A DNA stretch of 29,647 nt. Origin: a virus. Its lineage: Duplodnaviria > Caudoviricetes. Where the stretch lies: IMG/VR virus record IMGVR_UViG_3300045000_000007, positions 1 to 29,647 of that record; one strand, given 5' to 3'. The notes under the pieces were generated by a model. That model was given only the letters and a program-made list of their open reading frames with translations, was not told the origin of the DNA and did not search any database. Made by a program: the position numbers and the translations under genes. Shown in pieces: positions 278 to 28,375 of the stretch (the first letter of the stretch is position 1; the number at the start of each line of letters is the position of its first letter).

Positions 278-868
278 CTAGAAGGGCAGAAACAGTCGAC
301 TGGTAATTGTAGGCACCACATCTGACTGCGTTGATGTTGAGCTGCCTACTGTTCCATCCCATGCCCAGCCCGATCCGGAATCGCCGTCAGCGTAGGTAAG
401 AGCGGCGTCTGTGATCTGCTCGATCCGGCATGAGGAGAGAGAAAGTGTTCCAGCCGTACCGGCGGCGGGAATGTCGAGATGGAAATTTACGCCGTTGAAA
501 GTGGCAACGTTCAGCGTTCCCGTAACTCGTACTTGAGTCCACACGTTCGCACTCAGAGCAGTATCCACGATTCCCGTTCCACCACCACTCACGAAGGTGG
601 TGCCCTGCCAGGTGACCAGCGCTGCTCGAATCGTGCGCGCGACTGAGGATCGAATCCAGCCAACACCAGTCCACGTCTGACCTGATGCAGCAGTTCCCGG
701 TGTACAACCCATTGATGCACTGAATGAGCCAGCAGCCATCGCTACCGAAGCACCAGTAGTCCGAGGAGGCCCAGTCAATCCAGTCAGTCGAGTTCGCGCA
801 CCAGAACCGAGCCAGCCAGTGAGGTCATTGATCGCGCTGGGGTTCGGGCTCTTGTTGTAACGAGGCAT
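278..868 (-). CDS. Putative receptor-binding tip protein with a carbohydrate-binding-module-like beta sandwich
   Basis: Start coupled by TGATG to the upstream fibre gene at 868; NPS..., WTQVRVTGT and YADGD...W motifs typical of CBM-like tail modules; last gene of the tail operon. Confidence 0.6.
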   Translation of the reverse strand: MPRYNKSPNPSAINDLTGWLGSGARTRLTGLTGPPRTTGASVAMAAGSFSASMGCTPGTAASGQTWTGVGWIRSSVARTIRAALVTWQGTTFVSGGGTGIVDTALSANVWTQVRVTGTLNVATFNGVNFHLDIPAAGTAGTLSLSSCRIEQITDAALTYADGDSGSGWAWDGTVGSSTSTQSDVVPTITSRLFLPF

Positions 869-1725
869 CAGTACCCCTTCACGTATGCGATGACTCGCCA
901 CTTGTTGACAGACGTCCGATACACAGCCTGGACGTAATCCGTCAGCCCAGATGAGGTAGCTGTAAGTGCAGTAATGTCAGTACCATATGCGAAGCCACCA
1001 GTCCCAGTATCGAGAGACAGAGTACGTGCAGCGGCAGACGCGGTCACTTCCCAAACTGCGACCTGACCATCAGTCGGATTCGTCGGCGGACCCAGAGTGC
1101 GGTTGCCGCCCATCGACAGTCGGAAATGCGTACCGAGAGACGCATCTGTAGCGACCGTCGTAGCGTCAGTCAGAGTAACTGGCGGATGAGGCTTGACAGA
1201 TGTAGAAGAGGCAATGGTGATGGTGTCGGAACCATCATTCGGAGTGATCGTGACGTTTGTACCGGCGACGAGTGCCGTCCCCATGGTGTCACGAATCAGC
1301 TCAGGGGCATCCGCGGTAGGAAGCTTGGCATTCAGAGCTGTCTGAGTCGCAGTGCTGATTGGCTTGTTGTCGTCACTCGTGTTGTCGACATTCGTGAGTC
1401 CGACGTCCGACTTCGTTATCGCTGAGGCTGCCCAGGCGCCAGCCACACGCTTGATCAGTTGGCCATCACTGGCAGCCAGACCAGCAATCGTCGACAAGTC
1501 CGTATCGAGTGGTTGATAGGCAGCGTCTCCCTCTGCCTGAGTCAGATATCCCGGATGCGGATTAGAGGCGGCTTCGTGAGTCGCGATGGCACCTGCCGCA
1601 GTACCCGCGTCCTCCTTCGCCGTGATAGTCGCCTCGATACCGGCCAGCTCGTTCACACGATCAATGACGGCCCAGACTTCGTCACCCCAACCAGTCGAGC
1701 CGATCGCTGGCTTCTCAATAGGCAT
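868..1725 (-). CDS. Tail fibre/minor tail protein B
   Basis: Fibre motifs HEAASNPHPGY and KSDVGLTNVDNTSDDNKPISTATQTAL; ~100-aa C-terminal domain shared with 4637..5758. Confidence 0.8.
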   Translation of the reverse strand: MPIEKPAIGSTGWGDEVWAVIDRVNELAGIEATITAKEDAGTAAGAIATHEAASNPHPGYLTQAEGDAAYQPLDTDLSTIAGLAASDGQLIKRVAGAWAASAITKSDVGLTNVDNTSDDNKPISTATQTALNAKLPTADAPELIRDTMGTALVAGTNVTITPNDGSDTITIASSTSVKPHPPVTLTDATTVATDASLGTHFRLSMGGNRTLGPPTNPTDGQVAVWEVTASAAARTLSLDTGTGGFAYGTDITALTATSSGLTDYVQAVYRTSVNKWRVIAYVKGY

Positions 1726-1731
1726 CTTCTT

Positions 1732-1929
1732 CTACTCCCCAAACCCAGTGTTGCCAAAGCCCGCGAGCCCAAAGCCCGAGAGGCCGCTATACGGACTGGT
1801 ACCGAATGGCGCAAGACCAAAGCCATCATCATCTGAGGCTCGCTGCCAAACAAGTGTCGTGCCCACGTAGACCCGATCCACGGCTACCGTTCCGAGCAAC
1901 ACGTCATCGGCTGTATTCAGCAATGCCAT
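1732..1929 (-). CDS. Small tail adaptor protein, 65 aa
   Basis: LLGTVAVDRVYVGTTLVW motif followed by GFG repeats; tightly packed between two tail genes. Confidence 0.65.
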   Translation of the reverse strand: MALLNTADDVLLGTVAVDRVYVGTTLVWQRASDDDGFGLAPFGTSPYSGLSGFGLAGFGNTGFGE

Positions 1930-2847
1930 CTAGCCCACCACCACATACAGCGTCTCAGGATCGGGTGTGAGCAATGCGTCATAGGCTGCCTGGGTTAGCA
2001 CCTCAATTGGAGTCGTGACCTCAGCCCCGGAAGATGCGCCCGATCCCGCCGCCGGAAACGAGGACCCATCCCAGATATAGAGAAGGTCGTCATCTTGGCT
2101 GAAATACACCGCACCTTCATCAGCGGGACCGAGAGTCGACGCAATTGCGGTGAGTTCCGCATAGTCGACCACAACCGCAGTGATAGCCAGGCCATTGCCG
2201 TCTTCCCCATCAACACCGGCCGGACCCTGCGGCCCAGTCACACCTTGAGGTCCAATCCCGCCGGTAGCACCAGCTTCACCTTCCGGACCGACAACGTATC
2301 CCGCGTCCAGAACAGTCGCATCGGAAAGAGTGACCTGCAAATGCCCTAATTCATCGACCTCGGCAGCAGCGACCGATACGCCATCATCACCCACTGCACC
2401 AGTTGCACCCGTGGCGCCAGTCGGACCGATGACACTACCGGCGTCGATGACAGTTGAATCAGACAGAGTTACTTGCAGGTGACCCGATCCATCAACTGTA
2501 GCTGTGGTGACGGAAGTGCCCTGCGGACCAGTGTCGCCCGTCGGACCTGTCGCACCACGAATCTCGACGCCGTCTACTTCCGCTGGAAACGCAGTGCCAT
2601 CCCAGACGTACAGCAGCCCGTTATCGTTGTTGATGTACGCCTTTCCAGCATCGCTAGGTCCAAGGCCCGAAGCGATCGCCGCCAGTCCGCTATAGTTGTC
2701 CACCGCACCCGCAAGCTCAATCCCTACTCCTGAGTGAGTGTGGGAAGCCAGCCGGCTCAGGACCGTGCTCTTGATGTCGTCGAGCTTTCGACGTTCGTCT
2801 CGAACAACTCGCTCGATGCGGTCGAATCTACGCGGATCGGTAGCCAT
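1930..2847 (-). CDS. Collagen-like minor tail protein
   Basis: G-X-Y runs, duplicated LY(V/I)WDG modules and duplicated GHLQVTLSD modules; ends in TQAAYDALLTPDPETLYVV. Confidence 0.8.
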   Translation of the reverse strand: MATDPRRFDRIERVVRDERRKLDDIKSTVLSRLASHTHSGVGIELAGAVDNYSGLAAIASGLGPSDAGKAYINNDNGLLYVWDGTAFPAEVDGVEIRGATGPTGDTGPQGTSVTTATVDGSGHLQVTLSDSTVIDAGSVIGPTGATGATGAVGDDGVSVAAAEVDELGHLQVTLSDATVLDAGYVVGPEGEAGATGGIGPQGVTGPQGPAGVDGEDGNGLAITAVVVDYAELTAIASTLGPADEGAVYFSQDDDLLYIWDGSSFPAAGSGASSGAEVTTPIEVLTQAAYDALLTPDPETLYVVVG

Positions 2848-3914
2848 CAGGTGAACTCCACGCCTAGCCGTTGCTTGCCGTCCCGGTCGATATCGACCGT
2901 CACCTTCGCCACGCGATATGTACCGCTCTGAACTCCGATGCCAGCGTCATATGAATACGACACCGTGTCGCCAGGGCCGAAGTCCCCCGCATCCGATCCC
3001 TCTCGTGGAATCAAAGTGACACCAGGTTGGAACATCTCGTCATCACGAACGTCCTTGTAGGCGTCTGTGTGACCTTCCAGAGTGGTCGAGTTCGAGACTC
3101 CATCGAAGTTCACACCGGCCCACGAACGGCCGTACTGGGCTCGAACCGTGGCGTTCTCCCGCATCGTGTAGAGCTTCGTGTTCGAGCCCGCTGAGTCCTC
3201 GACGGTTCCAGTACCAGCTACGTCCGAGACCAGGTCGTCAGGCGCAACAGAGAGGGCGACGGAAGCTGAGTCGATGTTGAGTCGATCTAAGAACACACTC
3301 TGGGTAAGATCGATGCCGCGTTGCGGATATGACAAGACGAGTTGACGAGTGGTCGGATCAACGTGCATGTCAAAGCCGTTGATGACGGCGCCCAGCTCCT
3401 GAAGGCGTTGGCCGATGTTGTGCAACTCGTCCCTGAGATACACACGATCCCGCAGAACGCCACTCGTCATTACAGCGCTGGTATCGATCCCGTAGTTCCC
3501 ATACGCGAGATCCTGCCAGTGATCGACCAGAGATGCGGCAATCGTAAATTGGTCGGTGTCGTTGAACGTCAGGTCAGTAGTGACGCCCATCCGCCAGGTG
3601 TATCCAAGTAGCCCCGTGCAGTTCAGCTTCACAGTTTGGTCTTCGACCGAGAGTGTCTGAATCTCACCAGCCCATGCGATCCCAGAATTCCGGTACACCC
3701 ACACTTCGCAAGGGAAGGTAGCGAGGTTCGACAGGCGTTCCTTGACGGGGTCACTGAGTGAACTAATCGGGCAACCCAGAGTGGCACTACCAGGCCGGTT
3801 CAGCTCGTCGGTGTAGGACAACTGGTCGAACACCAGTCGGTCCACCTCGACGAGCGTCGGCGGGCCTGACGACGCGGGGACCCGGGCGACGAGGACGGTC
3901 TCGAAGTCGGCCAT
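2847..3914 (-). CDS. Baseplate hub/Tal-like minor tail protein (ReqiPepy6 Gp37-like)
   Basis: 355 aa; LSYTDELNRPGSATL N-terminus, WVYRNSGIAWAGEI, and GDFGPGDTV...YRVAKVTV C-terminus, typical of siphovirus hub proteins. Confidence 0.7.
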   Translation of the reverse strand: MADFETVLVARVPASSGPPTLVEVDRLVFDQLSYTDELNRPGSATLGCPISSLSDPVKERLSNLATFPCEVWVYRNSGIAWAGEIQTLSVEDQTVKLNCTGLLGYTWRMGVTTDLTFNDTDQFTIAASLVDHWQDLAYGNYGIDTSAVMTSGVLRDRVYLRDELHNIGQRLQELGAVINGFDMHVDPTTRQLVLSYPQRGIDLTQSVFLDRLNIDSASVALSVAPDDLVSDVAGTGTVEDSAGSNTKLYTMRENATVRAQYGRSWAGVNFDGVSNSTTLEGHTDAYKDVRDDEMFQPGVTLIPREGSDAGDFGPGDTVSYSYDAGIGVQSGTYRVAKVTVDIDRDGKQRLGVEFT

Positions 3915-4633
3915 CAGAAGAAGAACCCGCCCGTGTCGACGGGGGTGTAGGCGAGGACGACCCGGCCAGCAGCGCCTGCGCCACCCACCGCGAACGCGAG
4001 GTTGTAAGAGCCCGCCGAACCGCCTCCGCCGCCAGGAGCAACACCAGGGAGGCCCGAAAGTGGGGTGGTTCCGGAGTACCCGCGCCCATTTCCACCGGCG
4101 CCTGTGCCTGACCCGCCGGTGGCCTGCCCACCACCTGTAGCAGCCTGGGAACCGTCGCCGCCGTTCGTGTTCGTGAACGCCGACCCGCCACCGCCGCCAC
4201 CCGATCCGCGCAATGGGGAGGTTTCAGTCATCCTGCCTCCTCCGTTGCCGCCCGAAAACTTCACGGTTCCCGTACTGGCTGAAGCTTGGCCACCGGTGGG
4301 GAACGACAAGTCCGACTTACCGCCAGCCGCTACGACAACGGTGCTGGCGAACGTGGTGTCACCTCCGTTTGTGCCAAATCCCGAAGAACCACCCAGCGCT
4401 GGGCCTCCAGTTCCACCGGAACCAACCACGATGGCGTACGCGGTCCCTGGAGTAACGGCAACAATGGAGCTGGCGTACGCACCCCCGCCTCCGCCGTCAC
4501 CGGCGCCGTTGCCACCGCTTGAAGGACCACCACGGCCTCCGCCTCCACCGCCCCAGCACTCGACGGCGACGGACGTAACTCCGCCGGGGCAAACCCACGT
4601 GGTACTTGAGTTGAAGGTCTCAGCAGTAGGCAC
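3914..4633 (-). CDS. Glycine-rich tail tip/adhesin-like protein
   Basis: WVCPGGVTSVAVECWGGGGGG...VTPGTAYAIVVGSGG...GAAGRVVLAY pattern of phage glycine-rich domains; ends GGFFF. Confidence 0.75.
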   Translation of the reverse strand: MPTAETFNSSTTWVCPGGVTSVAVECWGGGGGGRGGPSSGGNGAGDGGGGGAYASSIVAVTPGTAYAIVVGSGGTGGPALGGSSGFGTNGGDTTFASTVVVAAGGKSDLSFPTGGQASASTGTVKFSGGNGGGRMTETSPLRGSGGGGGGSAFTNTNGGDGSQAATGGGQATGGSGTGAGGNGRGYSGTTPLSGLPGVAPGGGGGSAGSYNLAFAVGGAGAAGRVVLAYTPVDTGGFFF

Positions 4634-4636
4634 GGC

Positions 4637-5758
4637 TCAGAACCCCTTCGAGTAGCCGACGACCAACCACTTGTTCAGGGTGCTGTTGTAGATGGCGCGG
4701 ATAAAATCCCGCTTCCCTAACTCCGTCTGCGTCAGTGCGGTGATGGTGGTCCCGAGCAGGAACCCGCCAGTGCCTACGTTTAGCGCCAGTGTCCTTGCAG
4801 CACCGGAAGCGAGGTGCTCAATTGTGATGCCCTGTCCGTCCTTGGGATTCGTGGGTGCTGCAAGGGTACGATCCCCACTAGCCGAGAGCCGGAAGTACTC
4901 TCCGAGAGAGGCATCGAGTGCAACAGTGGCACCATCTGTCAGGGTCACCACAGCCGATGCGAATACAGAGGACCAGCGCACTCCCGCCGTCTGCGTCGAG
5001 TCGACACTAAGAACCTGCCCATTACTGCCAATACCGACTCGGGCGATAGTGTCAGCGGCCGTCCCGGCAATAAGATCGCCTTTTGCGTCGACTATCGTCG
5101 GGCGAATGTATCTGGCGTCTCCACGAGTGTCATTGTGGTATTGCGTGTGGTCGTCATCAGCAAGGCCACTTAGAGTTCCATGGTCGGTAGTAGCAAGACC
5201 GCCCTGTAATGCAGAGGCGATACGCACGTCCGTGATGTTGGCGCTCGTGATGGTCGTAGCAGCGGCACCCACAGCAACGCGAGCGAGCAGAACCCAAGCC
5301 TCCCATTGCGTATCAGGGCCTGGGTTTGCACCGCCAAGGTCGCCCTTCCGATAACCAATCTGTGGGAGCACACGGCTAGACACGTCGTAGGCGTTGTCGC
5401 GAACGACGAGGTAAATTTCATCGGTCCTGGCCTGGCTTGCGTCAGAGGCATCAATCGTGACGTTCTGCGACGTGACATCGAGTCGAACAATGTAATTGCC
5501 CTGGCCCTGAACATCACCAGCCACCACGTAGAAGTCAGCCTTGGCGGTCGCGGACCCCACCTTGACACTCATGTTGGGAACAGCTTGCGGCTGGACCTTG
5601 AATGCAGTGGCCGGCTTGAGGTACCCCTCAGTCAGAATCTCAGCAGGGAAGCGCGCTTCCTCAGCAGAGAAGTCGCTTACAGAGACACCTGCCGAGTCGG
5701 TACGGGAACCAACGACGTTCACTGAGAACGTCGAGTTCGTGTAGCTCGTAGTTGGCAC
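4637..5758 (-). CDS. Upper baseplate/tail fibre protein A
   Basis: PNMSVKV, RTDEIYLVVRD and LARVAVGAAATTITSANITDVR baseplate-anchor motifs; HGTLSGLADDDHTQY and DAKGDLIAG fibre motifs; AAAGGAG SD upstream of GTG. Confidence 0.75.
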   Translation of the reverse strand: MPTTSYTNSTFSVNVVGSRTDSAGVSVSDFSAEEARFPAEILTEGYLKPATAFKVQPQAVPNMSVKVGSATAKADFYVVAGDVQGQGNYIVRLDVTSQNVTIDASDASQARTDEIYLVVRDNAYDVSSRVLPQIGYRKGDLGGANPGPDTQWEAWVLLARVAVGAAATTITSANITDVRIASALQGGLATTDHGTLSGLADDDHTQYHNDTRGDARYIRPTIVDAKGDLIAGTAADTIARVGIGSNGQVLSVDSTQTAGVRWSSVFASAVVTLTDGATVALDASLGEYFRLSASGDRTLAAPTNPKDGQGITIEHLASGAARTLALNVGTGGFLLGTTITALTQTELGKRDFIRAIYNSTLNKWLVVGYSKGF

Positions 5759-5794
5759 TAGAGTTCATCTCCTTTCATGGTTGTAGGCGGCCGA

Positions 5795-6688
5795 CTAGTC
5801 GAGCCACGTGTCACGCCAGGTCAAGTTGCAAACAACATCAGTCGAACTACCCGCCACCTCGAACCGCAGAGTGTTCGAGCCGGGCGCTAGATAGAACGCT
5901 TTTCGTGGAAGCTGCCAATCGCCGTACCGACTCGAACCACTCAGACTGATCACGAGTCTTGGAGATCCAGTGACAGCAGCGTCCATGTCCGCGGTGAGGA
6001 TCTGCCCCGCGCCAATCGTTGTGGTGACTGTGATCTCCTGGCCTGTCGTGGAGTTCGTAAGCGTGAAGCCGGTACACGTACCCGTCACAGGTCCGAACAC
6101 CCGAATCAGTGGGTATGCGTCCGCAGCACCATCGTTCTGAACCACCAACTCACTCTGCGTCCCGCCGGTGAAGTCAACCGGGAACTCAGCGATCGGGAAG
6201 TCCATGCCGCCAGCGGACGTGGCATAGACAGGCACGTTGCCAGCCCGCTCAGTCGTGCTGTAGATCCGAGGATCAACCGCACGCAGCACAACAGGCGGAT
6301 ATCCCCTGATGTTGAAGTCGAGATACTTCTCCACCCGAGTGAGTTGCACTGGCCGGCAACGGATGAATCGCTCTGGCTGTCCAGGCCGTTTGAACGTCAG
6401 CGGGAAGTCATCTTCCCGAGAAGGCTGGAATGTCGAACGTACGGCTGCCCAGTTCGCTTCGTAGTCCTGGCCACCATTCATCGTGGTCTCGTAGTTGACC
6501 AACTCAAACGCGATGGTCCGTGCTCCCACATAGTCGAGACCACGAATACTTCCATCGCCCCGTGGCTGCTCGGAGTCCGAACTACGGACCTCGAAACCCT
6601 CTAGTCCCTCCACGCGATTGACCATGATGTCTTGAGCCTGTCCGAAGACAAGCCCTCGATATGAGAAGGTCAAATCCTCAAGAGCCAT
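5795..6688 (-). CDS. Distal tail protein (Dit)
   Basis: Immediately after the tape measure gene; 297 aa; DPRIYS, NDGAADAYP and LAPGSNTLRF motifs. Confidence 0.85.
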   Translation of the reverse strand: MALEDLTFSYRGLVFGQAQDIMVNRVEGLEGFEVRSSDSEQPRGDGSIRGLDYVGARTIAFELVNYETTMNGGQDYEANWAAVRSTFQPSREDDFPLTFKRPGQPERFIRCRPVQLTRVEKYLDFNIRGYPPVVLRAVDPRIYSTTERAGNVPVYATSAGGMDFPIAEFPVDFTGGTQSELVVQNDGAADAYPLIRVFGPVTGTCTGFTLTNSTTGQEITVTTTIGAGQILTADMDAAVTGSPRLVISLSGSSRYGDWQLPRKAFYLAPGSNTLRFEVAGSSTDVVCNLTWRDTWLD

Positions 6689-6689
6689 G

Positions 6690-8837
6690 TCATCCCACCG
6701 TCCTCATAGCCAGGGCGACGAATCGGCCGGTTTCAGCAGGCGACCCGGAAGTCTGGGTGACATGCACGTTGACTTCCTGCATCCGCTGACCCAGTGCCGT
6801 GAGGGTTTCGCTCAGCAGGCGCTCAAGCGACCGGCTACCGCGCGGCTGGTCTGCCCTGCTGGTCGGTGCCATGGCACCACCGAGTAGCCCTGTAGGAACG
6901 AGCCCAGCGGCCGATGCCGACGCGCTGGCAACCTCCTCCGCGAGCTGCCCCGCCGCGCCTGTGGCGAGCCCAGAGGCCGCATCGATGCCCGCAGCCATGC
7001 CAGCCGGGATCATCTTGCCGACTTCGTCGCGCATCCACTTCGACGGAGACGCGATCCCGAGGAAGCTCAGAATCGGTCCGGGAACAACGCTCTTGATCCA
7101 GCCACTGATCTTGCCCAGCAGCCAACTACCCATGGAGACAATGCCGTTCCACAGGCCGGTAACGATGTCCTTGCCAGCATTCACCAGCAGCGAGCCGAGA
7201 TTGCCAATCGCACTCATGATGCGGCCAGGCAAGCCGGACAGCCAGCTAACTACCTCAGTGAACTTGTTGACAACCGCATCCTTGGCCGCCCCGATCCAGC
7301 CAATGAACTTCCCGGGAAGTTCACTGAACCAGTTCAGGATGCCCTTGATCTTATCGACCGCTCCCTGCACGAAGCCCTTAATGCTGTCCCAGACGGTCTG
7401 AAAGAAGTTCTTGATGCCGTTGAAGACGTTAGTGACCGTGGTCTTGATGTTCTCCCACGACGTCGCGAAGAAGTTCTTGATGCCATTCACTACGTCGGTG
7501 ACGATCTGCTTGATGTTGTTCCAGGTATCAGAGAAGAACGTCTTGATGCCGTTCATGATGCTCGTGACGTTGCTCTTCAAGTTCGTGAAGAAGTTAATGA
7601 CGCCAGTCACAACGTTGGCCACGGTGGTCAGAATCGAAACGATGACCGTGATCAGGCCAGTGATGATGGGGATCAGGAAGTTGATCGCCGGGATCACGAT
7701 GCTCTGAATCGCTTGGGCGATGAGGGGGAGGATGGCACTAGCAAGTTGCAGAATTGGTGGAATGAGCGGAAGGACCGCAGCCACGATTGACATAAAGGCC
7801 GTGGCCAGTACGGGAAGTAGTGGCGCGAGAGCTTGAACGGCTTGAAGCAGAATCGCGCCAAGCTGACTGGCAATCTGAGTGATGATCGGCGCCATCATGG
7901 TGATCAGCGGAGTGATAGCAGCAAACGCAGCCGCCAGCGCCCCGCCAAGAACCGTGGCGACCTGGCCCAAGATCGGAGCCAGCGCCTGAATGACGGGGGT
8001 AAGAACTCCGACGAGGGCTTGAAGAAGTGGTCCAAGCGCGGTCATCACTGAGGTAAAGGCAGTTGCGATGACAGGCAGAATCGGAGCCAGAGTGCCCGAC
8101 AGCATCGTGACGAACTGCGTCATGATCGGTGCGATCGTCTGGATCGCAGTGCCGAGCATCCCGCCAATCGTGGTTGCCAGTTGAACGAGCAAAGGCATGA
8201 TGGCTGCAAGAAGTGGCCCACCGAACTGAGCCATCGTCCCGAGAAGTGTCCCCGCAACTGGTAGCAGTGAACTGATTCCGCCTAGCAACGCACTGACGCC
8301 AGTAGCTGCTCCCCCCATGCCCGAAGACATGTTCGTGAGGAAGCCGCTGATCCCGGTACCGAGTTGCCCGATCCCAACGCCGAATGCGTTGACAACCGGT
8401 GCAGCCGCTTGCGTCACGCTCAGCAGCCCCGGCATCACATTGGTGACCAGCATCAGAAGAGCAGTCGTCAGGGTCGCGATGTATGGAGCAGACGCACTGA
8501 ACGCTTGCCCGATTGCTGGTGCGATCTGATCGAACGTGCCTCGGATCTGAGTAGCTACACCGTTCAAAACGGGAACGATGGGAGCGGCCAGCTTTTGCGT
8601 CTCGGCGACGACGTGATCCTTGAGACCGGTGAAGCTTGCCTTCACAGTCTCGTTCTGAGCGGCGGCAGCGATGCCGATACCGGCGAACATCAGTGGAACG
8701 GCAGCAAGAGCACCACCTACAAGAGGAGCTACAGCCGCCGAAGCCAGAGCGGCCACACCCGAGATGCCTGCCGTCATCTTGGTGGTATCCGCCGATACAT
8801 CGACGAATGCATCTGCGATCTTAAATCCGGCGCCCAT
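6690..8837 (-). CDS. Tape measure protein, 715 aa
   Basis: Ala/Gly/hydrophobic helical protein after the chaperones; GFKIADAFVDV N-terminus; periodic Trp/Phe repeats; LGIASPSKWMRDEVG motif. Confidence 0.93.
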   Translation of the reverse strand: MGAGFKIADAFVDVSADTTKMTAGISGVAALASAAVAPLVGGALAAVPLMFAGIGIAAAAQNETVKASFTGLKDHVVAETQKLAAPIVPVLNGVATQIRGTFDQIAPAIGQAFSASAPYIATLTTALLMLVTNVMPGLLSVTQAAAPVVNAFGVGIGQLGTGISGFLTNMSSGMGGAATGVSALLGGISSLLPVAGTLLGTMAQFGGPLLAAIMPLLVQLATTIGGMLGTAIQTIAPIMTQFVTMLSGTLAPILPVIATAFTSVMTALGPLLQALVGVLTPVIQALAPILGQVATVLGGALAAAFAAITPLITMMAPIITQIASQLGAILLQAVQALAPLLPVLATAFMSIVAAVLPLIPPILQLASAILPLIAQAIQSIVIPAINFLIPIITGLITVIVSILTTVANVVTGVINFFTNLKSNVTSIMNGIKTFFSDTWNNIKQIVTDVVNGIKNFFATSWENIKTTVTNVFNGIKNFFQTVWDSIKGFVQGAVDKIKGILNWFSELPGKFIGWIGAAKDAVVNKFTEVVSWLSGLPGRIMSAIGNLGSLLVNAGKDIVTGLWNGIVSMGSWLLGKISGWIKSVVPGPILSFLGIASPSKWMRDEVGKMIPAGMAAGIDAASGLATGAAGQLAEEVASASASAAGLVPTGLLGGAMAPTSRADQPRGSRSLERLLSETLTALGQRMQEVNVHVTQTSGSPAETGRFVALAMRTVG
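7380..7600 (-). repeat. 11/22-aa periodic tape-measure repeats
   Basis: NGIKTFFSDTWNNIK / NGIKNFFATSWENIK / NGIKNFFQTVWDSIK; TCTTGATGCC recurs at 66-nt spacing. Confidence 0.7.
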
Positions 8838-9130
8838 CAGCGGATCACCACCCTTTCTCCTGCTCCGGGAGCGAATGACTGCAACTCACGAGTTGTCTTT
8901 GCGACTCGTGTGCCGTTCTTGATTCGGGTTCCTGAGCCGGTCGATTCCGCTTCGACCCGTGCCCGCATGACTCCGGGGTATGCGAAGATTCGCTCTGCGA
9001 ACTCAAAGAAACGCGGCCCGTCCAGGCTGTAGACGTCCTCGACCCTGTGGAGGACGGAGAAGTCACTCTCCAAATCCTTGAGATGATCGAGGACCCACAT
9101 CACTTGCCTGGCCCGCTCTCGGAGTTTCCC
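8837..9130 (-). CDS. Tail assembly chaperone, frameshifted (T) portion of GT
   Basis: The -1 frame is open from the slippery site (...LRERARQVMWVLDHLKDLESDFSVLHRV...) to the stop at 8837, coupled to the TMP start. Confidence 0.8.
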   Translation of the reverse strand, partial: GKLRERARQVMWVLDHLKDLESDFSVLHRVEDVYSLDGPRFFEFAERIFAYPGVMRARVEAESTGSGTRIKNGTRVAKTTRELQSFAPGAGERVVIR

Positions 9131-9444
9131 AGGCTCTGATTGAGAGCCCCGAGAGTCAGCTTCGTGGCACCCGAGAGAATCGAGTTGAACTGGTCGGGAG
9201 TCAGGTCCTCGTATTCCGTAAGCGCCTTGAAGCCCTCTTCACCGATGAGCGCCACCAGGAGATTCGTCGCGGCAGGCAGCTCACCAATCGTCTTGGCTTC
9301 CCACAGGTATTTGAGCGCGACGTTCACCTTGGGCTTGGCAGGAATCTGGTAGACCTTGCCGTCGATGAAGAAGAGATCCATCATCTTGGGGTCTTCTTGA
9401 TTAGCCTGCCGCTCAATGGTGACGGGCGTGTAGTTCTCACTCAT
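9100..9444 (-). CDS. Tail assembly chaperone (G)
   Basis: 114 aa between major tail and TMP; LFFIDGKVYQIP; carries the slippery heptamer near its 3' end. Confidence 0.85.
   Translation of the reverse strand: MSENYTPVTIERQANQEDPKMMDLFFIDGKVYQIPAKPKVNVALKYLWEAKTIGELPAATNLLVALIGEEGFKALTEYEDLTPDQFNSILSGATKLTLGALNQSLGNSESGPGK
9124..9130 (-). other. -1 programmed ribosomal frameshift site G GGA AAC
   Basis: Plus-strand GTTTCCC; X XXY YYZ register matches the G frame, and a -1 shift enters the 8837..9103 ORF. Confidence 0.85.
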
Positions 9445-10013
9445 TACGCCGCCTCGCGCTCTTGGATCTTGTAAGACGCAATCGAGCTAGAGACGTAGTG
9501 AGTCGCCAGCGTGCACTTGAAGACGCTCTGCTCGTCCTTCTTGTAAGCGAATTCGACGTTGTCGACGCTCAGGACCTTTCGCAGGATGATCCGGCGACGC
9601 TCACCGTCTGGCCCATATCCGTCGATAATGACCGCGGAGTAGTTGGGCTGGGTTGCGCTGTTGGCATCCGCGGGTTCAAAAGTCTTGTAACCCGTGGCGT
9701 CGCTAACAGTGCCGCCGTTAAGTGAAAATTCCAGATTGTCGAGCGTGCCCTCAGCAAGCGAGAGTTCGACAGTCACCCGGCGCTTGACGAGACGGGATTC
9801 GGGAACGTCAACGATCTGGTCGACGTCCATCTCTTCGTACTCTTGCTCGATTGTGAGGTTCACGCCGTCCTTCGTGAAACCCACATCGGTCCAAGCACCA
9901 GAGTCAGGCACCGCGTCGAGCGCAGTAGTCGTGTCGGCAGGCTCCGTGGCACCGAAAGCGCCTCGATAAACCGTTGCCGGCCCCTGAATCAGGTTGGTGG
10001 TCATACCAGCCAT
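9444..10013 (-). CDS. Major tail (tube) protein
   Basis: 189 aa; NLIQGPATVY, WTDVGFTKDGVNL and VDQ motifs; position before the chaperones. Confidence 0.9.
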   Translation of the reverse strand: MAGMTTNLIQGPATVYRGAFGATEPADTTTALDAVPDSGAWTDVGFTKDGVNLTIEQEYEEMDVDQIVDVPESRLVKRRVTVELSLAEGTLDNLEFSLNGGTVSDATGYKTFEPADANSATQPNYSAVIIDGYGPDGERRRIILRKVLSVDNVEFAYKKDEQSVFKCTLATHYVSSSIASYKIQEREAA

Positions 10014-10035
10014 TTCGATTTCCCCTTATTTGCTA

Positions 10036-11005: not shown

Positions 11006-11007
11006 GG

Positions 11008-11710: not shown

Positions 11711-11712
11711 GA

Positions 11713-19737: not shown

Positions 19738-21279
19738 CTAGTGCTCGTTCTTGTTGCTTGGCACGTGCTCACTGCCGCACGCACTGCCGTCGTTCTCATC
19801 ACGAGAATTCATTTCGGCAATAGCCCTTGGACTTCTTGCACGAATACGTACCTTGTCCATTCTAGCCTTTTCCGCAGATCGTGGGGAGGCCACACGGCGA
19901 GGTGGAGTCCAATCCGAGGAATCCCCCACGATGGCCGCAATCTCCTCGTCCGACACATAAACGGAACGGAATCGCCGGTAGCCCAACTGGCCTTCCACAT
20001 ATACGTAGCCAATACCTGGCATGTCTTGCGGAATCGCAGAGCAGAGCGCACCATCCTGTTCCGCACCATCTCCCAGGACGGCGTTTGTCAGCGCGCTACT
20101 TCTAACCGCCATACAAACTCGCTGGACGAACACGTCTCGGAGTTCTCCAATGACGCTCTTCTGTCCAAGTTGCGAACATGCCCACACGACATATCCCGAT
20201 GCCCGACCCTGAGTCAGAAGCTGCCCTAGCGGACCGTCAATGCCTTCCGCCAGTACGGTCCCGACAAGCAGGAGCTCGTCGATAATCAGGACGTTGAGTG
20301 GCGTCTCCGGACTGATCTTGACCTTCCGGCCTGGCATTGTCTTCATCCGCTTGAACATGTCCTCAGCAACTCGACGAACGAGTCGACCAGCACCAGTCGA
20401 ATCACTGACGTAGTTCACGGTGTGTTGGTAGCCGGCCAGTTCTCCCATCTCGATTCCGCCCTTGGGATCGATGACGTGCAGCTCGTGCGGAGTCCCGACC
20501 TCTTGCATCCCTCGAAGCAGGGACCACACCACACCCGACTTGCCCGACCCCGATTCACCACCGATCAGCAGTGAGCGTTCTGGGTAGATGCCGACGACCG
20601 TCCGATCCTCGTCGATGCCAAACGGGATGCGCGATCCACGCAGTGACTGACCATCACTCAGAACCGCAGGAGTCACGATCTCGGCAAGCGGGTCTTCCCA
20701 AAGGATTTCCACCCAGCCTCGTCCTGCATCAATCGGAGTGACACGCACCATCACAGCACCGGGAAGAGACGCGCAGATAGTGTCCTTGACGAATGTCTCT
20801 TTGAACTTCGCAATCGGAAGTCCCAGTCGACCTGAGTTCACATAGCCACGTACGCCACGGCAACCTCGTCCGAGATGCAGCAACCAGATGTTCGGAACCG
20901 AGCGACCACGACGATTGACCAGCGCAGCCGCGAAGCAAACCTTGTTCCACTTGTAGTTGACAACGGCCATCTTCCAGAGCATCACCACAACACGCGATGA
21001 CACCCCACCACCGACGACCAGGAGCATCACGGCAATCCAGGCAAGCCCCACAACCACGAGCCCACCCAGGACAGCCATCCCGCTGATCAACCACCCGAGC
21101 CCGTACGACGTGTGGACCCACACGAGCGCCACAGCGAAGAACAAGAGCCAGTAGTGCTTGACCCACCAGACAATCGTTCGTTCGATGACGAGCAACCACA
21201 GAGGCTTGTGGAGGTAGTCAGTGACCCTGGCATCACTGCCGAACGTCTGTGGGTCTACTGCTGTGACTCGCTCACCCAT
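19738..21279 (-). CDS. FtsK/SpoIIIE-family DNA translocase, AICE/TraB-like
   Basis: N-terminal TM helices; Walker A GGESGSGKS, IDPKGGIEM, Walker B LIIDE, QGRASG; VLGDGA...GALCSAIPQDMPGIGYV...RSVYVSDEEI tail resembling actinomycete ICE transfer proteins. Confidence 0.88.
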   Translation of the reverse strand: MGERVTAVDPQTFGSDARVTDYLHKPLWLLVIERTIVWWVKHYWLLFFAVALVWVHTSYGLGWLISGMAVLGGLVVVGLAWIAVMLLVVGGGVSSRVVVMLWKMAVVNYKWNKVCFAAALVNRRGRSVPNIWLLHLGRGCRGVRGYVNSGRLGLPIAKFKETFVKDTICASLPGAVMVRVTPIDAGRGWVEILWEDPLAEIVTPAVLSDGQSLRGSRIPFGIDEDRTVVGIYPERSLLIGGESGSGKSGVVWSLLRGMQEVGTPHELHVIDPKGGIEMGELAGYQHTVNYVSDSTGAGRLVRRVAEDMFKRMKTMPGRKVKISPETPLNVLIIDELLLVGTVLAEGIDGPLGQLLTQGRASGYVVWACSQLGQKSVIGELRDVFVQRVCMAVRSSALTNAVLGDGAEQDGALCSAIPQDMPGIGYVYVEGQLGYRRFRSVYVSDEEIAAIVGDSSDWTPPRRVASPRSAEKARMDKVRIRARSPRAIAEMNSRDENDGSACGSEHVPSNKNEH

Positions 21280-21556
21280 CGAAATCCGCCTCCACTTCGT
21301 AACCCAGCATGGTTGCCCACCTCATGAACGCCCATGCCCAATCGCTATTGACTACGGTCCACATCGAGCAGCATCGGCACCGACATGTCTCCCGCTTTCG
21401 GAACCGCTCTGGGATCTTCCCCATGAGTTCGGCTAGCGACGTATCATCCGCACGGAAGAGCATCCGGTAGCGCATCGGCAGGACGCGGACCTTCAACACT
21501 TCCCGTTCAGCCTTCATAGCCTTGACTTCGTTCCACACCTGACGCCACGCGCTCAT
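21272..21556 (-). CDS. Hypothetical protein with CxCxCC motif, 94 aa
   Basis: TGATG-coupled start; overlaps the FtsK start by 8 nt. Confidence 0.65.
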   Translation of the reverse strand: MSAWRQVWNEVKAMKAEREVLKVRVLPMRYRMLFRADDTSLAELMGKIPERFRKRETCRCRCCSMWTVVNSDWAWAFMRWATMLGYEVEADFDG

Positions 21557-21729
21557 CAGAAAACCTCTCGGAAGAATGGAAGGACATCGATCCCAATCGG
21601 GACCGAGTTGTCCTCCACGATTGGTACCGTCCTGCGTTCAAGGTAGGTCAGCCCGACTTTGCAATACGGGCAAGCCACCTTGTAGACGACCGTGTCAAAC
21701 CAGTTGCCGCACAGCACACACTCATGCAT
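21556..21729 (-). CDS. Zinc-ribbon protein, 57 aa (not in ORF track)
   Basis: MHECVLCGNWFDTVVYKVACPYCKVGLTYLERRTVPIVEDNSVPIGIDVLPFFREVF; CxxC-x12-CxxC; stop coupled to the next start. Confidence 0.7.
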   Translation of the reverse strand: MHECVLCGNWFDTVVYKVACPYCKVGLTYLERRTVPIVEDNSVPIGIDVLPFFREVF

Positions 21730-21778
21730 CACAGTCGGACCTGAGCGTCGTCACCAGCCACACATTGAAATCCGTCAT
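21722..21778 (-). CDS. Possible 18-aa leader ORF
   Basis: AAAGGAG SD (21787-21793) then MTDFNVWLVTTLRSDCDA; its stop overlaps the 5' end of the Zn-ribbon gene. Confidence 0.4.
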   Translation of the reverse strand: MTDFNVWLVTTLRSDCDA

Positions 21779-21841: not shown

Positions 21842-22043
21842 TGTGTACCGCGTGTACTGGTACACATCGGGCGTTTCTGTCTCGCGGCTCCCCTTAGGGT
21901 GCCCTCACCTGACGCGCAACGCTCTGACCTGCATAAACACAACACAACTGTCAGTTAGTAGATAGAGAGCGAAAAGGAGTGAAAGAGGGGCGATGTGTAC
22001 CGGTCCACGTGGTACACAGGTACACATCTCGGGCCTCTGTCTC
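21842..22043. repeat. Repeat-rich non-coding region: candidate replication origin and/or clt-like transfer locus
   Basis: Two TGTGTACC-N9-GGTACACA palindromes (21842-21866 and 21994-22018) plus a tandem GGTACACA (22019-22026); each cluster followed by GGGC..TCTGTCTC. Confidence 0.65.
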
Positions 22044-24356: not shown

Positions 24357-24683
24357 CTACTTTGCTGACTCGACTTCGAGCAGTACGGCTAGACGGCTGC
24401 GTTGATACTCAGTCAACGGTGGAGCCTCATCAATGAGTCGAGCGATAGCCTCGTCAATGACGGACTCGTGAGTCGCCATGATGGCGCGCACATCATCAAG
24501 CCGAAGTGCATTGCACAGAGCCTTGAAGACTGGCGGAGACACAGTCTTTCGATGACCCGATTCGAGGTTGGCCACGAAGGAATAGTGGACTCCGACCTCA
24601 TCGGCCAGAGCCTCAGTACGAACTCCGAGTAGCTTTCGGATCTCCCGAAGCGCAGAGCCGTTGATGGCAATCGACTTTGCCAT
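24357..24683 (-). CDS. XRE-family HTH protein with phiRv1 RDF-like C-terminus
   Basis: INGSALREIRK...LADEVGVHYSFVANLESG HTH; C-terminal APPLTEYQRSRLAVLL. Confidence 0.8.
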   Translation of the reverse strand: MAKSIAINGSALREIRKLLGVRTEALADEVGVHYSFVANLESGHRKTVSPPVFKALCNALRLDDVRAIMATHESVIDEAIARLIDEAPPLTEYQRSRLAVLLEVESAK

Positions 24684-25108
24684 AGGTATCCCACCTGTGT
24701 AGAAGCGGTTCGGATACCGGTTAGATAAGCGTCGTCGGCAGACGCAGAAGGTCAATTCTCGCGTGGCCGCAGCCGGGGCGGAACGTTCCTCGCCCTCACA
24801 TGATCCACTCTACAGGGCTCTCCACGGCATTGCCACCGAGCCGACCGTTTCACTCGAACGGGTGACGTCGAGCGGTCCAGCGCACGGCTCTATTCGATGC
24901 CTTGCCCCTGTTGCCCTCTACGTCGGCCGTAGGCGCGAGAAGGCTCGTCGCCGGTGTGGTCTATCGCGGGCACCGCAGAACGGCGCTCAGCGGCGATCGT
25001 GGAGGCCACGCAATTGGGCGCGGTCTTGGATTCAGCCGAAGGAGCTTCGCAGGACACATGACCCTGTATCGTGCTGCTCAGTTCAGTTCCACGGGAGGGA
25101 TGAAGGAA

Positions 25109-25346: not shown

Positions 25347-25937
25347 TCACTCGATGACTTCGACCTGACGGCCCATGTCTGTCATTTCTTGCGGTGATGC
25401 TGCCGTGACCGCTGCGTGGTGGAATTCGGCATCGTCGTTGGTCATCTCTTTGAGATGACCAAACCAGTCTCGAACCCACCTCACTCCGGCTGTATCAATG
25501 AAGTACATCTTGACCCTGTACGCAGAATACTTGTGGACGCCAACTTGAGGAAAGCGAACGGCAACTTCCTTGTCGCCTGTCTTAAGGAGCACTGGAAAAC
25601 TGGCAAGAAGCTTGCCCGGGTTTTCGTTTGCAGACAGGAAGGTGACTGTGAAGACGGGGGCGTCAGATGTGTTGATAACTTGGATGGAGAGAGCGCCATC
25701 CTTCCCGTTCGCCGCCCAGAAGGCGACCTTCGAAGCCTGTTCTCGTTTGGTCTGTTCCTGTAATGTGTTGAACTCCTTACGTTGGAGCTCTAAGGTCTGT
25801 TGTTGAGCACGGTTGGTTTGGATTGTTGCTCTTGCCGCAATGCTTGCGACTATGAAGGCTCCGACAGCAACGACCGTGGTTGACCAGTCGGCAAGGCTCC
25901 CGAGCATCGACCAATCGGCATCAGGCAGGAGGATCAC
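25347..25937 (-). CDS. Membrane-anchored hypothetical protein (paralog 2)
   Basis: GTGA coupling to the upstream paralog; LGSLADW-TM, QQQTLELQR, QASKV, NTSDAPV and YFIDTAGVRWVR. Confidence 0.75.
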   Translation of the reverse strand: MILLPDADWSMLGSLADWSTTVVAVGAFIVASIAARATIQTNRAQQQTLELQRKEFNTLQEQTKREQASKVAFWAANGKDGALSIQVINTSDAPVFTVTFLSANENPGKLLASFPVLLKTGDKEVAVRFPQVGVHKYSAYRVKMYFIDTAGVRWVRDWFGHLKEMTNDDAEFHHAAVTAASPQEMTDMGRQVEVIE

Positions 25938-26500
25938 TCGGTGTGCCCCGGCTGTGCGATCAACTGGATGCGGTCCCTCAGTTCTTCGTGCGTCGGGCGT
26001 CTTAGTTCGCCCATTGCTTGCCGAGTCCAGGCCAGCCCAGCAGCATCTTGGAAGTACAGCTCGTAGAACTGGACTTCTAAGACGTTGCGTCCTAGCTCCC
26101 ACGCTTCTGGCTCAGGACCGGTAGGAAACAGACTGTCTGACTCGTGCAGTATCTGCTTGTTCGGCCCCGGACCAGCCCTAAGTAGGGTCAGAAAGTACAC
26201 CGGCGAATCGGACGCATTGACGACGTATGCGGTCATCGGACCCATGTCAACTGCGGTTCCGCCATCTGGTGTCGGATGAGGGTCTAGCCTCATTTCGCTC
26301 ATGTGAAACGAGACCTTCGATGCTTGAGCACGTTCGATCTGTTGACGCTGCAACTCTAAGGTCTGTTGCTGAGAGCGGTTAGTTTCTCGCGCTGCTTTGC
26401 CAGCGCGAGCGGCGAAGAAGAGGGCGACGGCAGCAGTGACCCCAGTGAACCAGTCGGCAATAACTCCGAGTGCGTCCCAGGTTAACCAGTCTGGCACCAC
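25934..26500 (-). CDS. Membrane-anchored hypothetical protein (paralog 1)
   Basis: AGGAG SD; LGVIADW-TM, QQQTLELQR, QASKV, NASDSPV and YFQDAAGLAWTR. Confidence 0.78.
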   Translation of the reverse strand: MVPDWLTWDALGVIADWFTGVTAAVALFFAARAGKAARETNRSQQQTLELQRQQIERAQASKVSFHMSEMRLDPHPTPDGGTAVDMGPMTAYVVNASDSPVYFLTLLRAGPGPNKQILHESDSLFPTGPEPEAWELGRNVLEVQFYELYFQDAAGLAWTRQAMGELRRPTHEELRDRIQLIAQPGHTE

Positions 26501-26550
26501 GACTCCTGTCTGCTATAGGAGTCGCAAGCGTACCGTGCTACTGCATCTGG

Positions 26551-26901
26551 TCAGGGATTGACTGTCTGCCACTCGGTCGGTGGCACTACCCGCGTGATCT
26601 CAAGTGGCTCTAGCCCATCGATTCGATACTTGGCCACCTGATACTCAACGGGTAGGCCAAGCTCTGCGCTCACGTCTTGCGCCTGTTCGTATGCAGATTC
26701 GAGACTGCCGGCTTCAAAGGCGCATCCGATGTCACCGCATCGGATAAGGGCCACGACAACCTCTTCACCTTCGATCGCCCCCCTGATGAAATCCGGAGGG
26801 GGCTCGTATAGCTCTGTTGTGATCCAGTCGCCGTCTTGCTTGATGGACCGGTCGCTAATTTCCAGAGGGATGAGGTCGCTTGCTTGAAGGGTTCGTGGCA
26901 T
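26551..26901 (-). CDS. Acidic hypothetical protein, 116 aa
   Basis: ATG 26901 lies 7 nt after TATCCT; begins just downstream of the integrase stop. Confidence 0.6.
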   Translation of the reverse strand: MPRTLQASDLIPLEISDRSIKQDGDWITTELYEPPPDFIRGAIEGEEVVVALIRCGDIGCAFEAGSLESAYEQAQDVSAELGLPVEYQVAKYRIDGLEPLEITRVVPPTEWQTVNP

Positions 26902-26923
26902 GCGGATTAGGATACGCGGAGAG

Positions 26924-28375
26924 TCAAGTGCGCCAGACAATCCCGATATCGTTCGGGTTGAAAATGCCACCTGGCTTAGAGCGGTTGACAGTCACGTCGA
27001 CCAGGAGACTCACGACGGTTCGCTTCCGCTCGTCGCTCAGCTTCGCCCACACGTTCTTGGGTTCATCGGCTTCCACCAGCTCTCCGATGACCCTATCCCT
27101 AGCAGGCGAAACAGACTTGGTCCGCAGCTCTTCGAGCCTTGGTCGAAGCGAACTGTTGATTGTCGTGAGCTGAGCCATGGTGATGTTGCCCGCAGCGAAA
27201 GCCCCCGCGGCGTCTTGTAAACGCTCTTCGATCTCCTGAATCTGCGCGCGGACCGTCCTTGCCATCTTCGTTCGGCGCCTCGACTCCACCATCAGGTCTC
27301 GAACGTCCATCTTCTCAAGTCTCGCGATGACGAGCTTCGAGACGAAGCGGTCAAGCAACTCCTGGTCTCGGACGACGTGACCTTCTTTGCAGCGGTAAAC
27401 GGTCTTGGCTACTCCCTTGTACATCTTGCCCTTCGCTACCACGATCCGGCCACCACATACACCGCACTTGGCGTGGATCGAAAGCAGATGCACCTTCCCG
27501 CTCTTGCCAGGGTTGGTCACTCGGGAGGGGTTGAGCAGCATCGCTTGAAGCTGACGGAAGTCATCAACGTCTACGATCGCATCCCACAGACCCGGACCGA
27601 CTTCTTCCTTGGTTCCGTCTGCTGAGGTATAGGTTCGGATTCCAGCGTTCCGTTCCCTGAGCAGCGTCGAGCGCACCGTGACTGCCCGCCATTGCCTACC
27701 AGTGGCGGTCAGGACTCCACGTTCGTTCAGCTCTCGTGCAATCCCCTTCATCGAATTGCCTGCAAGAGCCTGCTTCGTGGCCCATCTGATGATCTCGGCT
27801 TCCGCAGGGTCTTCCTTGACGATCGCCCTACCCGATTCGTCTATCTCAACTTCGCGACCCCAGCCATACGGACGGCTCCCGCCATGGTGCTTCCCGGATG
27901 CAGCGTTCTCTTGGAGCTTCCGCTTGATCCGTTCTGATTTGTGACTGCTCTCGTGTTCTGCCACGGCTCCCGCAATCTGTGCCTGCATCCGACCGCTTGG
28001 TGTCGTGAGGTCGTAGATCCCTGACTTCACGGTCTGGACGGTGACCCCGTGATCGTTCACCAAGTCGATGAATGGGACCAGTTCTCGAAGTTGCCTATGA
28101 AGACGGTCAGGGTGCCAGGCAACCACAACGTCAATCTTCCCAGCCGCAAGATCAGCGAGCATCTTCCCGTAGGCGGGGCGCGGCTTCCTGCGCTGGTACG
28201 CGCTCCGGTCGTTGTCGCAGTACACCTCCACGACAACCCATCCCTGGTACTCGCACAGGGCACGACAGTCGGCTTCCTGCCGACCAACCCCCAGGCCAGC
28301 ACCCGTCTGGTCCTCGGAGATGCGCACGTAGACAGCCGCTCGTTGCGGCCCAGTCGATCTTGTTGCGGTCCCCAT
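26924..28375 (-). CDS. int: Large serine integrase, phiRv1 (Rv1586c)-like
   Basis: RAAVYVRISED catalytic Ser, DND.SA, RPAY, WHPDRLHR, recombinase domain (PYGW, IARELNERG), Zn ribbon CGVCGG...YRC and coiled coil; ATG 28375 is 6 nt after TACGCT. Confidence 0.95.
   Translation of the reverse strand: MGTATRSTGPQRAAVYVRISEDQTGAGLGVGRQEADCRALCEYQGWVVVEVYCDNDRSAYQRRKPRPAYGKMLADLAAGKIDVVVAWHPDRLHRQLRELVPFIDLVNDHGVTVQTVKSGIYDLTTPSGRMQAQIAGAVAEHESSHKSERIKRKLQENAASGKHHGGSRPYGWGREVEIDESGRAIVKEDPAEAEIIRWATKQALAGNSMKGIARELNERGVLTATGRQWRAVTVRSTLLRERNAGIRTYTSADGTKEEVGPGLWDAIVDVDDFRQLQAMLLNPSRVTNPGKSGKVHLLSIHAKCGVCGGRIVVAKGKMYKGVAKTVYRCKEGHVVRDQELLDRFVSKLVIARLEKMDVRDLMVESRRRTKMARTVRAQIQEIEERLQDAAGAFAAGNITMAQLTTINSSLRPRLEELRTKSVSPARDRVIGELVEADEPKNVWAKLSDERKRTVVSLLVDVTVNRSKPGGIFNPNDIGIVWRT

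Follow-up and report, generated by a model that had tools for sequence, protein, structure and literature searches.

Actinomycete integrative conjugative elements (AICEs) are defined in silico by an integrase (Int), a replication protein (Rep) and a transfer protein (Tra), with int not lying between rep and tra (PMC3218068). A single gene can be central to transfer, traB being described as the single crucial transfer gene of pSVH1 and as sufficient in pIJ101 (PMC4447253). Conjugation and particle production have been reported together in pZL12, a Streptomyces conjugative plasmid-phage with a lytic cycle (PMC3583192, PMC4487206), and the Streptomyces phages MiniFlayer, MulchRoom and Ando are known as helper-dependent satellites (PMC10690885, PMC13587820), Ando being reported as lacking lysis genes and as closest to MulchRoom (PMC13587820). 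EPIP satellites, for their part, lack tails (PMC12822802). This article describes a 29,647-base element of the Caudoviricetes (Duplodnaviria) that makes up the entire IMG/VR virus record IMGVR_UViG_3300045000_000007; the window is that whole stretch, positions 1 to 29,647. It is a nearly complete circular genome in which a serine integrase, a Prim-Pol replicase and a membrane-anchored ATPase of apparent Tra descent accompany a full set of tailed-virion genes, and in which no recognisable lysis gene was found. Relatives are referred to by the handles used in the analysis.

The genes of the minus strand, read from right to left, encode the serine integrase, accessory membrane proteins, an XRE regulator, the replicase, two small proteins, the ATPase, the small and large terminase subunits (terS and terL), and the head and tail proteins. 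An earlier note, made from the letters of the sequence, had placed the integrase, Prim-Pol, ATPase and TerS-to-fibre genes on one strand, with the ATPase stop 49 nucleotides (nt) from the start of terS; open reading frame (ORF) calls and comparison with Pfam and PHROGs bear out both points, the spacer being 19689-19737. Its proposal that these genes include the core of an AICE also agrees with the published definition, since the order is int-rep-tra and Prim-Pol is one of the allowed Rep types (RepSA, RepAM or Prim-Pol), alongside an integrase and an FtsK-type Tra (PMC3218068). Terminase, portal, HK97-fold capsid, tail tube, tape measure, Dit and fibres are all present and constitute a temperate siphovirus set. 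The note's full structural set is thus found, with the correction that the minus-strand block is interrupted by a cassette at 13654-14663, three genes of which lie on the plus strand.

Completeness of the record is crucial to any statement about missing genes. On the plus strand, the final ORF (29504-29647) reaches the end of the record without a stop and has two matches among 1.84 billion representatives. The better of these, P0241 (60 amino acids [aa], 64% identity), extends 13 residues beyond the cut, and its final five residues and stop are identical to bases 7-24 of the element in frame, from which it follows that the record closes into a circle through a junction-spanning gene, the junction being about six codons short relative to P0241. 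Assigned genes cover 94% of the element and the biggest gaps are of 359 and 309 nt, too small for the usual catalytic lysin domain; with the circle closed and no gap above 359 nt, no lysin is expected to lie outside the record. Relatives of similar size exist. The contigs that carry the ATPase relative P0002 (73%) and the capsid relative P0122 (72%) are both 29,216 bases long, those of the ATPase relative P0003 (47%) and P0241 are both 29,596 bases long, and another close ATPase relative lies on a contig of 32,702 bases. The equal sizes suggest that P0002 and P0122 share one contig and P0003 and P0241 another, and because close ATPase relatives sit on contigs of these lengths, a size of about 29-33 kb and possession of the pump look like family traits.

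Lysin, holin and spanin families were matched by none of 50 ORFs in Pfam and PHROGs at E<=0.01, by none of the further small ORFs (0/9 in Pfam, 0/6 in PHROGs) and by none of 30 ORFs in NCBIfam at E<=0.1, and the 715-aa tape measure gave no hydrolase domain match in Pfam or PHROGs. The absence of visible lysis genes reported in the earlier note is therefore upheld in a genome that is essentially complete, and the lack of a lysis module is real as far as genes can be recognised. Six or more small or single-transmembrane proteins of the element carry no functional label. A tblastn comparison of 15 lysis proteins of relatives with the element and 26 other stretches returned one self-match; it missed the amidase of G545, had little power and was not used as evidence. 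A genome search with PF01510 likewise overlooked the amidase of G035 and is of limited sensitivity.

The ATPase has one strong hydrophobic segment (residues 68-86) inside two predicted helices (43-59 and 63-89), and its layout, which combines hydrophobic helices at the N-terminus with an alpha-domain and a RecA-fold motor, is modelled by AlphaFold at a mean pLDDT of 80.6. In a structure search the best PDB matches were FtsK motors (2ius, 2iut and 6t8g, E 1e-16), followed by TcpA and EccC. The Walker A motif (241-248), the Walker B residues D334 and E335, Q370 and R359 are invariant in an alignment of 18 relatives. The C-terminus has neither a winged helix nor a nuclease fusion; as a winged helix is also missing in the Tra of the AICE pMR2, its lack is compatible with a role as Tra. 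The element ATPase is 34% identical to pMR2 Tra over 187 residues, and both proteins end in a low-complexity tail. No tblastn match to the ATPase was obtained in 50,697 GenBank phage records at 1e-5, and 12 plasmid matches were found, including pMR2 and pSVH1; a query with pSVH1 TraB gave only distant FtsK matches in GenBank phages. No plasmid record matched the capsid protein.

The ancestry of the ATPase was assessed in a 45-row tree of the ATPase domain (IQ-TREE, LG+G4, midpoint root), in which pAmy1 and a Streptosporangium protein were anchored by HMM position. The element ATPase belongs to a clade of 17 rows (support 95/91), whose sister group (96/86) is the Tra clade of pMR2 and pAmy1 (98/94). 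Chromosomal FtsK, EccC and the pSVH1-type TraB clade fall elsewhere, and the FtsK of mycobacteriophage Wanda groups with chromosomal FtsK (100/99). A quick tree of 70 rows agrees, with an SH-aLRT of 98 for the grouping of the element with pMR2/pAmy1; in it the ATPases of two larger relatives, G022 and G018, are long branches outside the Tra clades, for which the Tra label rests on gene context only. On this phylogeny the ATPase is probably Tra-derived, yet has apparently been a phage gene for a long time. The part of the earlier note that assigned it to the AICE/plasmid Tra type stands in so far as it lies away from chromosomal FtsK, EccC and Wanda FtsK, and needs amending in that it lies beside the AICE clade, not inside it.

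The features of the element are as follows.

1..260, plus strand: tail of the junction ORF (1-24), a 59-aa membrane-type gene (26-205), and an inverted repeat dividing it from the convergent tail operon.
278..8837, minus strand: tape measure (715 aa), Dit, minor tail, Gly-rich, hub, collagen-like and fibre genes.
8837..13491, minus strand: HK97-fold major capsid, adaptor, stopper, neck, tail terminator, tail tube and two tail chaperone ORFs.
13654..14663: inserted cassette between scaffold and capsid, with a helix-turn-helix (HTH) gene on the minus strand and three small genes on the plus strand, two encoding membrane proteins (68 and 85 aa).
14884..16883, minus strand: SPP1-type portal and scaffold (PF05133, PF06810).
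16935..17513, minus strand: single-transmembrane helical membrane protein of 192 aa, between terL and portal.
17537..19066, minus strand: terL.
19227-19688, minus strand: putative terS (HTH; 46% to a MiniFlayer-like position; 28-52% matches just upstream of terL in relatives).
19738-21279, minus strand: FtsK/SpoIIIE ATPase, probably Tra-derived, membrane-anchored, 513 aa (PF01580, E 1.3e-6, 28.5 bits against a cut-off of 24).
21272..21732, minus strand: two small genes (58 aa with CxxC pairs; 94 aa) immediately upstream of, and coupled to, the ATPase gene.
21842..22026: octamer cluster of 185 nt, with five copies and two 8+9+8 palindromes flanking an AT-rich stretch.
22042-24345, minus strand: Prim-Pol primase/polymerase fused to a DUF3987 helicase-like domain, the replicase (PF09250 E 2e-28, PF13148).
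24357..24755, minus strand: XRE/Cro-type HTH regulator (PF13560, PF01381).
25347..26500, minus strand: two paralogous single-transmembrane membrane proteins of about 188 aa each (phmmer paralogy E 1e-23; transmembrane segments predicted).
26924-28390, minus strand: large serine integrase (Resolvase PF00239 E 1e-34, Recombinase PF07508 E 1e-15; phrog_95 integrase E 1e-104).
28500..29647, plus strand: small genes including an HNH protein; the last ORF (29504-29647) reaches the end and resumes at bases 1-24.

The protein relatives of the element in sequence searches are actinobacterial or from actinophages, and its host is likely an actinobacterium. The nearest cultured matches of the Prim-Pol are mycobacteriophage primase/polymerases (about 42% over the N-terminal 40%), and the cultured kin of terL are those of Streptomyces phages (46%), the satellites MulchRoom and MiniFlayer (42-46%) and the Microbacterium phage OscarSo (42%). 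The assignment of terS is inferred from its HTH, its position and its matches in relatives. Within the integrase ORF the first ATG is at 28375. The paralogous membrane proteins are likely immunity or accessory genes, the product of 25934-26500 having no sequence match in the PDB, and the 58-aa and 94-aa genes match no family above cut-off in Pfam, PHROGs or NCBIfam. The cassette between scaffold and capsid is GC-richer (63% versus 56-59%). The products of 26-205 and 14406-14663 (59 and 85 aa) are paralogues (phrog_2697), each lying in its own plus-strand cassette. No element protein matched a Par family in Pfam or PHROGs, and scans for sigma-70 promoters and terminators found fewer sites than in shuffles.

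Cis-acting sites and spread genes of the kind that accompany plasmid transfer were sought in the element. The five octamer copies just after the replicase form the top 8-mer cluster of the genome (maximum of four in 60 Markov shuffles); because the motif was chosen after being seen, its single-motif significance is overstated, and the comparison with shuffles and relatives is the fairer one. Equivalent clusters follow the helicase gene in two relatives described below, G001 (nine copies) and G003 (five), so the region 21842-22026 is likely a replication origin rather than clt; a role as clt was rejected because G001 has no Tra. Elsewhere, octamer clusters occur inside a membrane gene near tra in G003 (L108:15821-15987) and in pMR2 (L004:7035-7105), the pMR2 octamer being the pSVH1 clt repeat, and these are candidate clt sites in spd-like genes. 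The membrane protein at 16935-17513 resembles the plasmid spread protein KilB in the ESM Atlas (feature score 0.85, structural TM scores 0.57/0.65), below the bar for naming; the lead is weak, there being no tblastn match to plasmids at E<=1. A conserved multi-transmembrane protein (phrog_10376) near the genome end of MiniFlayer and MulchRoom (L001:14392-15336, L002:11331-12287) is Spd-like by eye, with no significant SpdB2 or DUF2637 match. MiniFlayer gp19 and MulchRoom gp15, which lie upstream of terS, were considered as Spd-like by eye only and set aside: Pfam gave no match, and neither BLAST nor phmmer showed significant similarity to SpdB2 or DUF2637 proteins.

Relatives of the virion module place the missing lysis genes in context. 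A capsid alignment retrieved 56 IMG/VR loci and a Dit alignment five, one of them new; alignments were needed, single-protein scans of viral contigs with the ATPase or terL having given nothing. A close capsid gene occurs in two of 301 and one of 401 genomes in samples of GTDB. None of the 56 capsid loci has an FtsK gene within flanks of up to 10 kb, and PF01580 exceeded its cut-off in four of the 31 capsid-locus records searched whole (the larger ones), with weak matches in three more and none in four further records. The relatives were annotated by a simple gene caller, and the ORFs scanned were those without a BLAST match to element proteins; for G007, G008, G013, G018 and G022 only ORFs of 150-760 aa were scanned, G018 not entirely. 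G003 (36,389 bases, 127-nt repeat) has a serine integrase, a D5 helicase and an opposite-strand operon of small membrane genes ending in a 708-aa TraB. G040 (35,292 bases, 94% complete) combines a serine integrase with a TrwC relaxase, a relaxase-helicase of 1,448 aa (L198:5766-10112). G346, of about 36 kb, is integrated between the host coaE and tetR/S1 genes and has a serine integrase, a D5 helicase, an intact terL and a 733-aa winged-helix TraB. Together with G001 (32,464 bases, 141-nt terminal repeat), which encodes a Prim-Pol and matches the element in terL (59%), Dit (63%) and hub (68%), these genomes had no lysis family among their scanned ORFs. Conjugation-type genes, from three families, are thus carried by four of the five small lysin-less members (the element included) in what is a small, hand-picked sample, the TraB of G003 and G346 being unrelated to the element ATPase. 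The same scans found lysins in ten larger records (G007, G008, G013, G018, G545 and G032-G036), and lysin loss accompanies small size in this virion family. G545 has an amidase and no Tra within the 49.5 kb examined, and in G022 (88 kb, terminal repeats) a 688-aa ATPase is accompanied by DUF2637, NUDIX and GntR-UTRA genes, with no lysin in the ORFs scanned. G029 (34 kb, OscarSo-like) has a 258-aa gene at the position of the OscarSo endolysin and no FtsK, and was excluded from the lysin-less count; G002 and G004 are fragments. Glycosyltransferase, cytidylyltransferase or epimerase cassettes, absent from the element, are present in many family members (L109:1986-4775, L199:15139-17796, L131, L181, L186, L194, L205 and L209), where virion or cell-surface glycosylation is a possible function.

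Members of the ATPase clade with known context, six among the matches listed, are all IMG/VR virus records (L005-L009 and L200). Virion genes were observed in L200 and in G032-G035, G036 being unannotated. The position of a Tra gene at packaging genes, which the earlier note had singled out, recurs among them: the ATPase gene lies 105 nt before the probable terL in G032 and between the probable terS and terL in L200, terminases named from their position before the portal gene. A C-terminal GIY-YIG nuclease is fused to the ATPase in four of the 17 closest homologues and in L005-L007. Such Tra-clade fusions at L200:34-3954 and L005:94-3636, the latter directly before a probable terL, suggest a link to genome processing. 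A lone Cas7 gene (L009:7197-8087) lies near the Tra-clade ATPase of a 104-kb viral record, and G032 carries genes with domain matches to QueC, GTP cyclohydrolase I and radical SAM proteins (L117:11361-16014), which we take to be a cluster of the 7-deazaguanine DNA-modification type. Separately, eight IMG/VR loci among the matches listed (L010-L017, mostly 62-85 kb, GC about 70%) have a TraB-type gene of about 700 aa behind a gene of about 400 aa, the latter SpdB2-like in L010, L012 and L014 by phmmer. In many cases accompanied by GntR-UTRA and NUDIX genes, they precede terminase or tail genes by a few kb and are entire AICE/plasmid-type transfer modules in unrelated tailed phages.

The life cycle that we tentatively favor, at slightly less than an even chance, is that of a complete temperate element that spreads from cell to cell by means of its Tra and whose particles depend on outside lysis for exit. 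The serine integrase would insert and excise the element, and the excised circle would replicate from the octamer origin. A hexameric ring of Tra in the membrane would then pump the double-stranded circle into adjacent cells or hyphal compartments, while genomes would also be packaged into tailed particles, to leave when a co-infecting or co-resident helper phage, or autolysis of the host, opens the cell.

Several observations weigh against this account. The ATPase clade is sister to AICE Tra and not nested within it, and conjugation of pMR2 itself is entered as not determined (PMC2440964, Table 1). No 8-mer cluster lies beside the ATPase gene of the element, the same script recovering the five clt repeats after pSVH1 traB, and no element protein matches SpdB2 or DUF2637 in Pfam or in a targeted comparison. 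G001, the closest syntenic lysin-less relative, had no FtsK/Tra, integrase or lysis match. All five near-complete (83-100%) phages with the ATPase clade among the matches listed encode endolysins (GH25 in G032, G033 and G034, an amidase in the other two, G035 and G036), with holins also present in G032 and G035, so that the ATPase alone is not tied to lysis loss; since G007, G008, G013 and G018 (65-77 kb) also hold both an FtsK/TraB-type gene and a lysin (CHAP, CHAP, GH25 and amidase, respectively), Tra does not replace lysis as a rule. The location of the ATPase in or at the packaging module of three phages and its frequent fusion to GIY-YIG may point to another job. Profile scans, moreover, may overlook divergent lysins: in G029, the gene that occupies the lysin position (258 aa) had no Pfam match. 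The novelty that the earlier note saw in a combination of Tra, virion and missing lysis is accordingly qualified: other small lysin-less relatives do carry conjugation-type genes, whereas the endolysin-encoding phages of the clade, the Tra-less G001 and the precedent of pZL12 detract from it. The hybrid idea survives the tests of completeness and ancestry and is partly supported, the pump and the loss of lysis being only loosely linked.

An alternative is a temperate phage with an ordinary cycle, its ATPase a long-domesticated phage gene for genome movement or processing near packaging, or for spread within one mycelium, and its lysis achieved by unrecognised small membrane proteins or host autolysins. 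We regard this as unlikely, with an appreciable chance nonetheless. The distinct phage clade formed by the ATPase (95/91), all of whose members with known context among the matches listed are viruses, the proximity of its gene to terminases in the element, G032 and L200, the GIY-YIG fusions of homologues and the unlabelled small membrane proteins of the element are as expected of it, and SpdB2 homologues on some actinophages have been suggested to help spread phage DNA (PMC4447253). It has to contend with the lack of a catalytic lysin domain, and of room for one, and with an element ATPase that has no nuclease fusion; the small membrane genes belong to accessory cassettes, some of them on the strand opposite to the late genes, and four small relatives without these genes have lost their lysins as well. 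A different possibility, and quite an unlikely one, is a satellite for lysis only, with its own head, tail and replication, that requires a helper phage for exit and carries the Tra-like gene as a passenger that does not move it. Kinship of its head genes to those of MiniFlayer and MulchRoom, the lysin-less G001 without a transfer gene, and the absence of any clt or Spd seen in the element are in keeping with such a satellite. Against it stand the full length and invariant motor motifs of the ATPase gene and its retention at 42-73% identity by relatives on contigs of 29-33 kb; the acquisition of transfer genes of three families by lysin-less relatives also suggests that a route other than the virion is under selection. 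It is very unlikely that the element is a defective prophage or a misassembly without its lysis cassette: the short junction and the single contig are consistent with it, but the junction-spanning gene closes the circle, the structural genes are all intact, relatives of the same size exist, and four independent relatives are lysin-less as well.

Extending the favored account of Tra-driven spread and borrowed lysis beyond this element, there may be a class of 29-36 kb actinobacterial integrative tailed viruses without lysis genes that has repeatedly captured conjugation motors (pMR2-like Tra, pSVH1-like TraB, TrwC) for spread without killing and disperses as virions only if the host is opened by another phage or by autolysis, a generalization that we consider doubtful. 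If the pump does move the genome, one element would have two routes, by contact and by virion, and would have given up killing its host. Its small genome would, if so, make the suggested spread of actinophage DNA through hyphal cross-walls (PMC4447253) directly testable. Tra genes are present in many uncultured actinophages and lacking from the GenBank phage set, so that plaque-based isolation may have missed such a lifestyle.

In the literature searched, with most subscription journals outside its coverage, no description was found of a lysin-less element that integrates, replicates itself, has a full tail and carries a Tra gene, and each of the known systems shares some of these properties. 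The pMR2-clade AICEs have in common with the element, by our comparison, an Int, a Prim-Pol and a single FtsK-domain Tra, a protein of about 470-550 aa that has membrane helices at its N-terminus and lacks a winged helix; according to PMC3218068, on the other hand, they all use RepSA, whereas the element uses Prim-Pol. The element adds about 19 kb of virion genes, is without DUF2637/SpdB2, a GntR repressor and clt repeats, and has a Walker A motif ending in GKS rather than the GKG of the pMR2 clade. Tra and virion genes in one element are not new, as pZL12 likewise combines a major tra gene for conjugal transfer with phage particle genes in one replicon. By its description, pZL12 is a theta plasmid with ParA/ParB that alternates between plasmid and lytic cycles, whereas the 29.6-kb element encodes a serine integrase and lacks both Par genes and any lysis genes that could be recognised. 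Cultured actinophages with an FtsK/SpoIIIE gene include Wanda-type mycobacteriophages and the Streptomyces phages Jaresh and AndoPrime (PMC13587820); the Wanda FtsK groups with chromosomal FtsK, unlike the element ATPase. The same virion module family is found in OscarSo and in Wentworth- and Yara-type Streptomyces phages, and OscarSo (33 kb, with primase/polymerase/helicase) differs in its annotated endolysin (M23) and holin and in having neither an integrase nor an FtsK gene. The satellites MiniFlayer, MulchRoom and Ando have related terminase, portal and capsid genes (terL 42-46%, portal 36-41% and capsid 37-43% for the element against MiniFlayer and MulchRoom) and no lysis genes, none being listed in the records of the former two, and MulchRoom and Ando also have an integrase. 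They are only 13-17 kb in size and without a replicase and full tail, whereas the element has a Prim-Pol replicase, a tape measure, Dit, hub, fibres and the Tra ATPase. If the favored life cycle is correct, the element would bridge the gap that separates AICEs, plasmid-phages and phage satellites, as a satellite that borrows only lysis.

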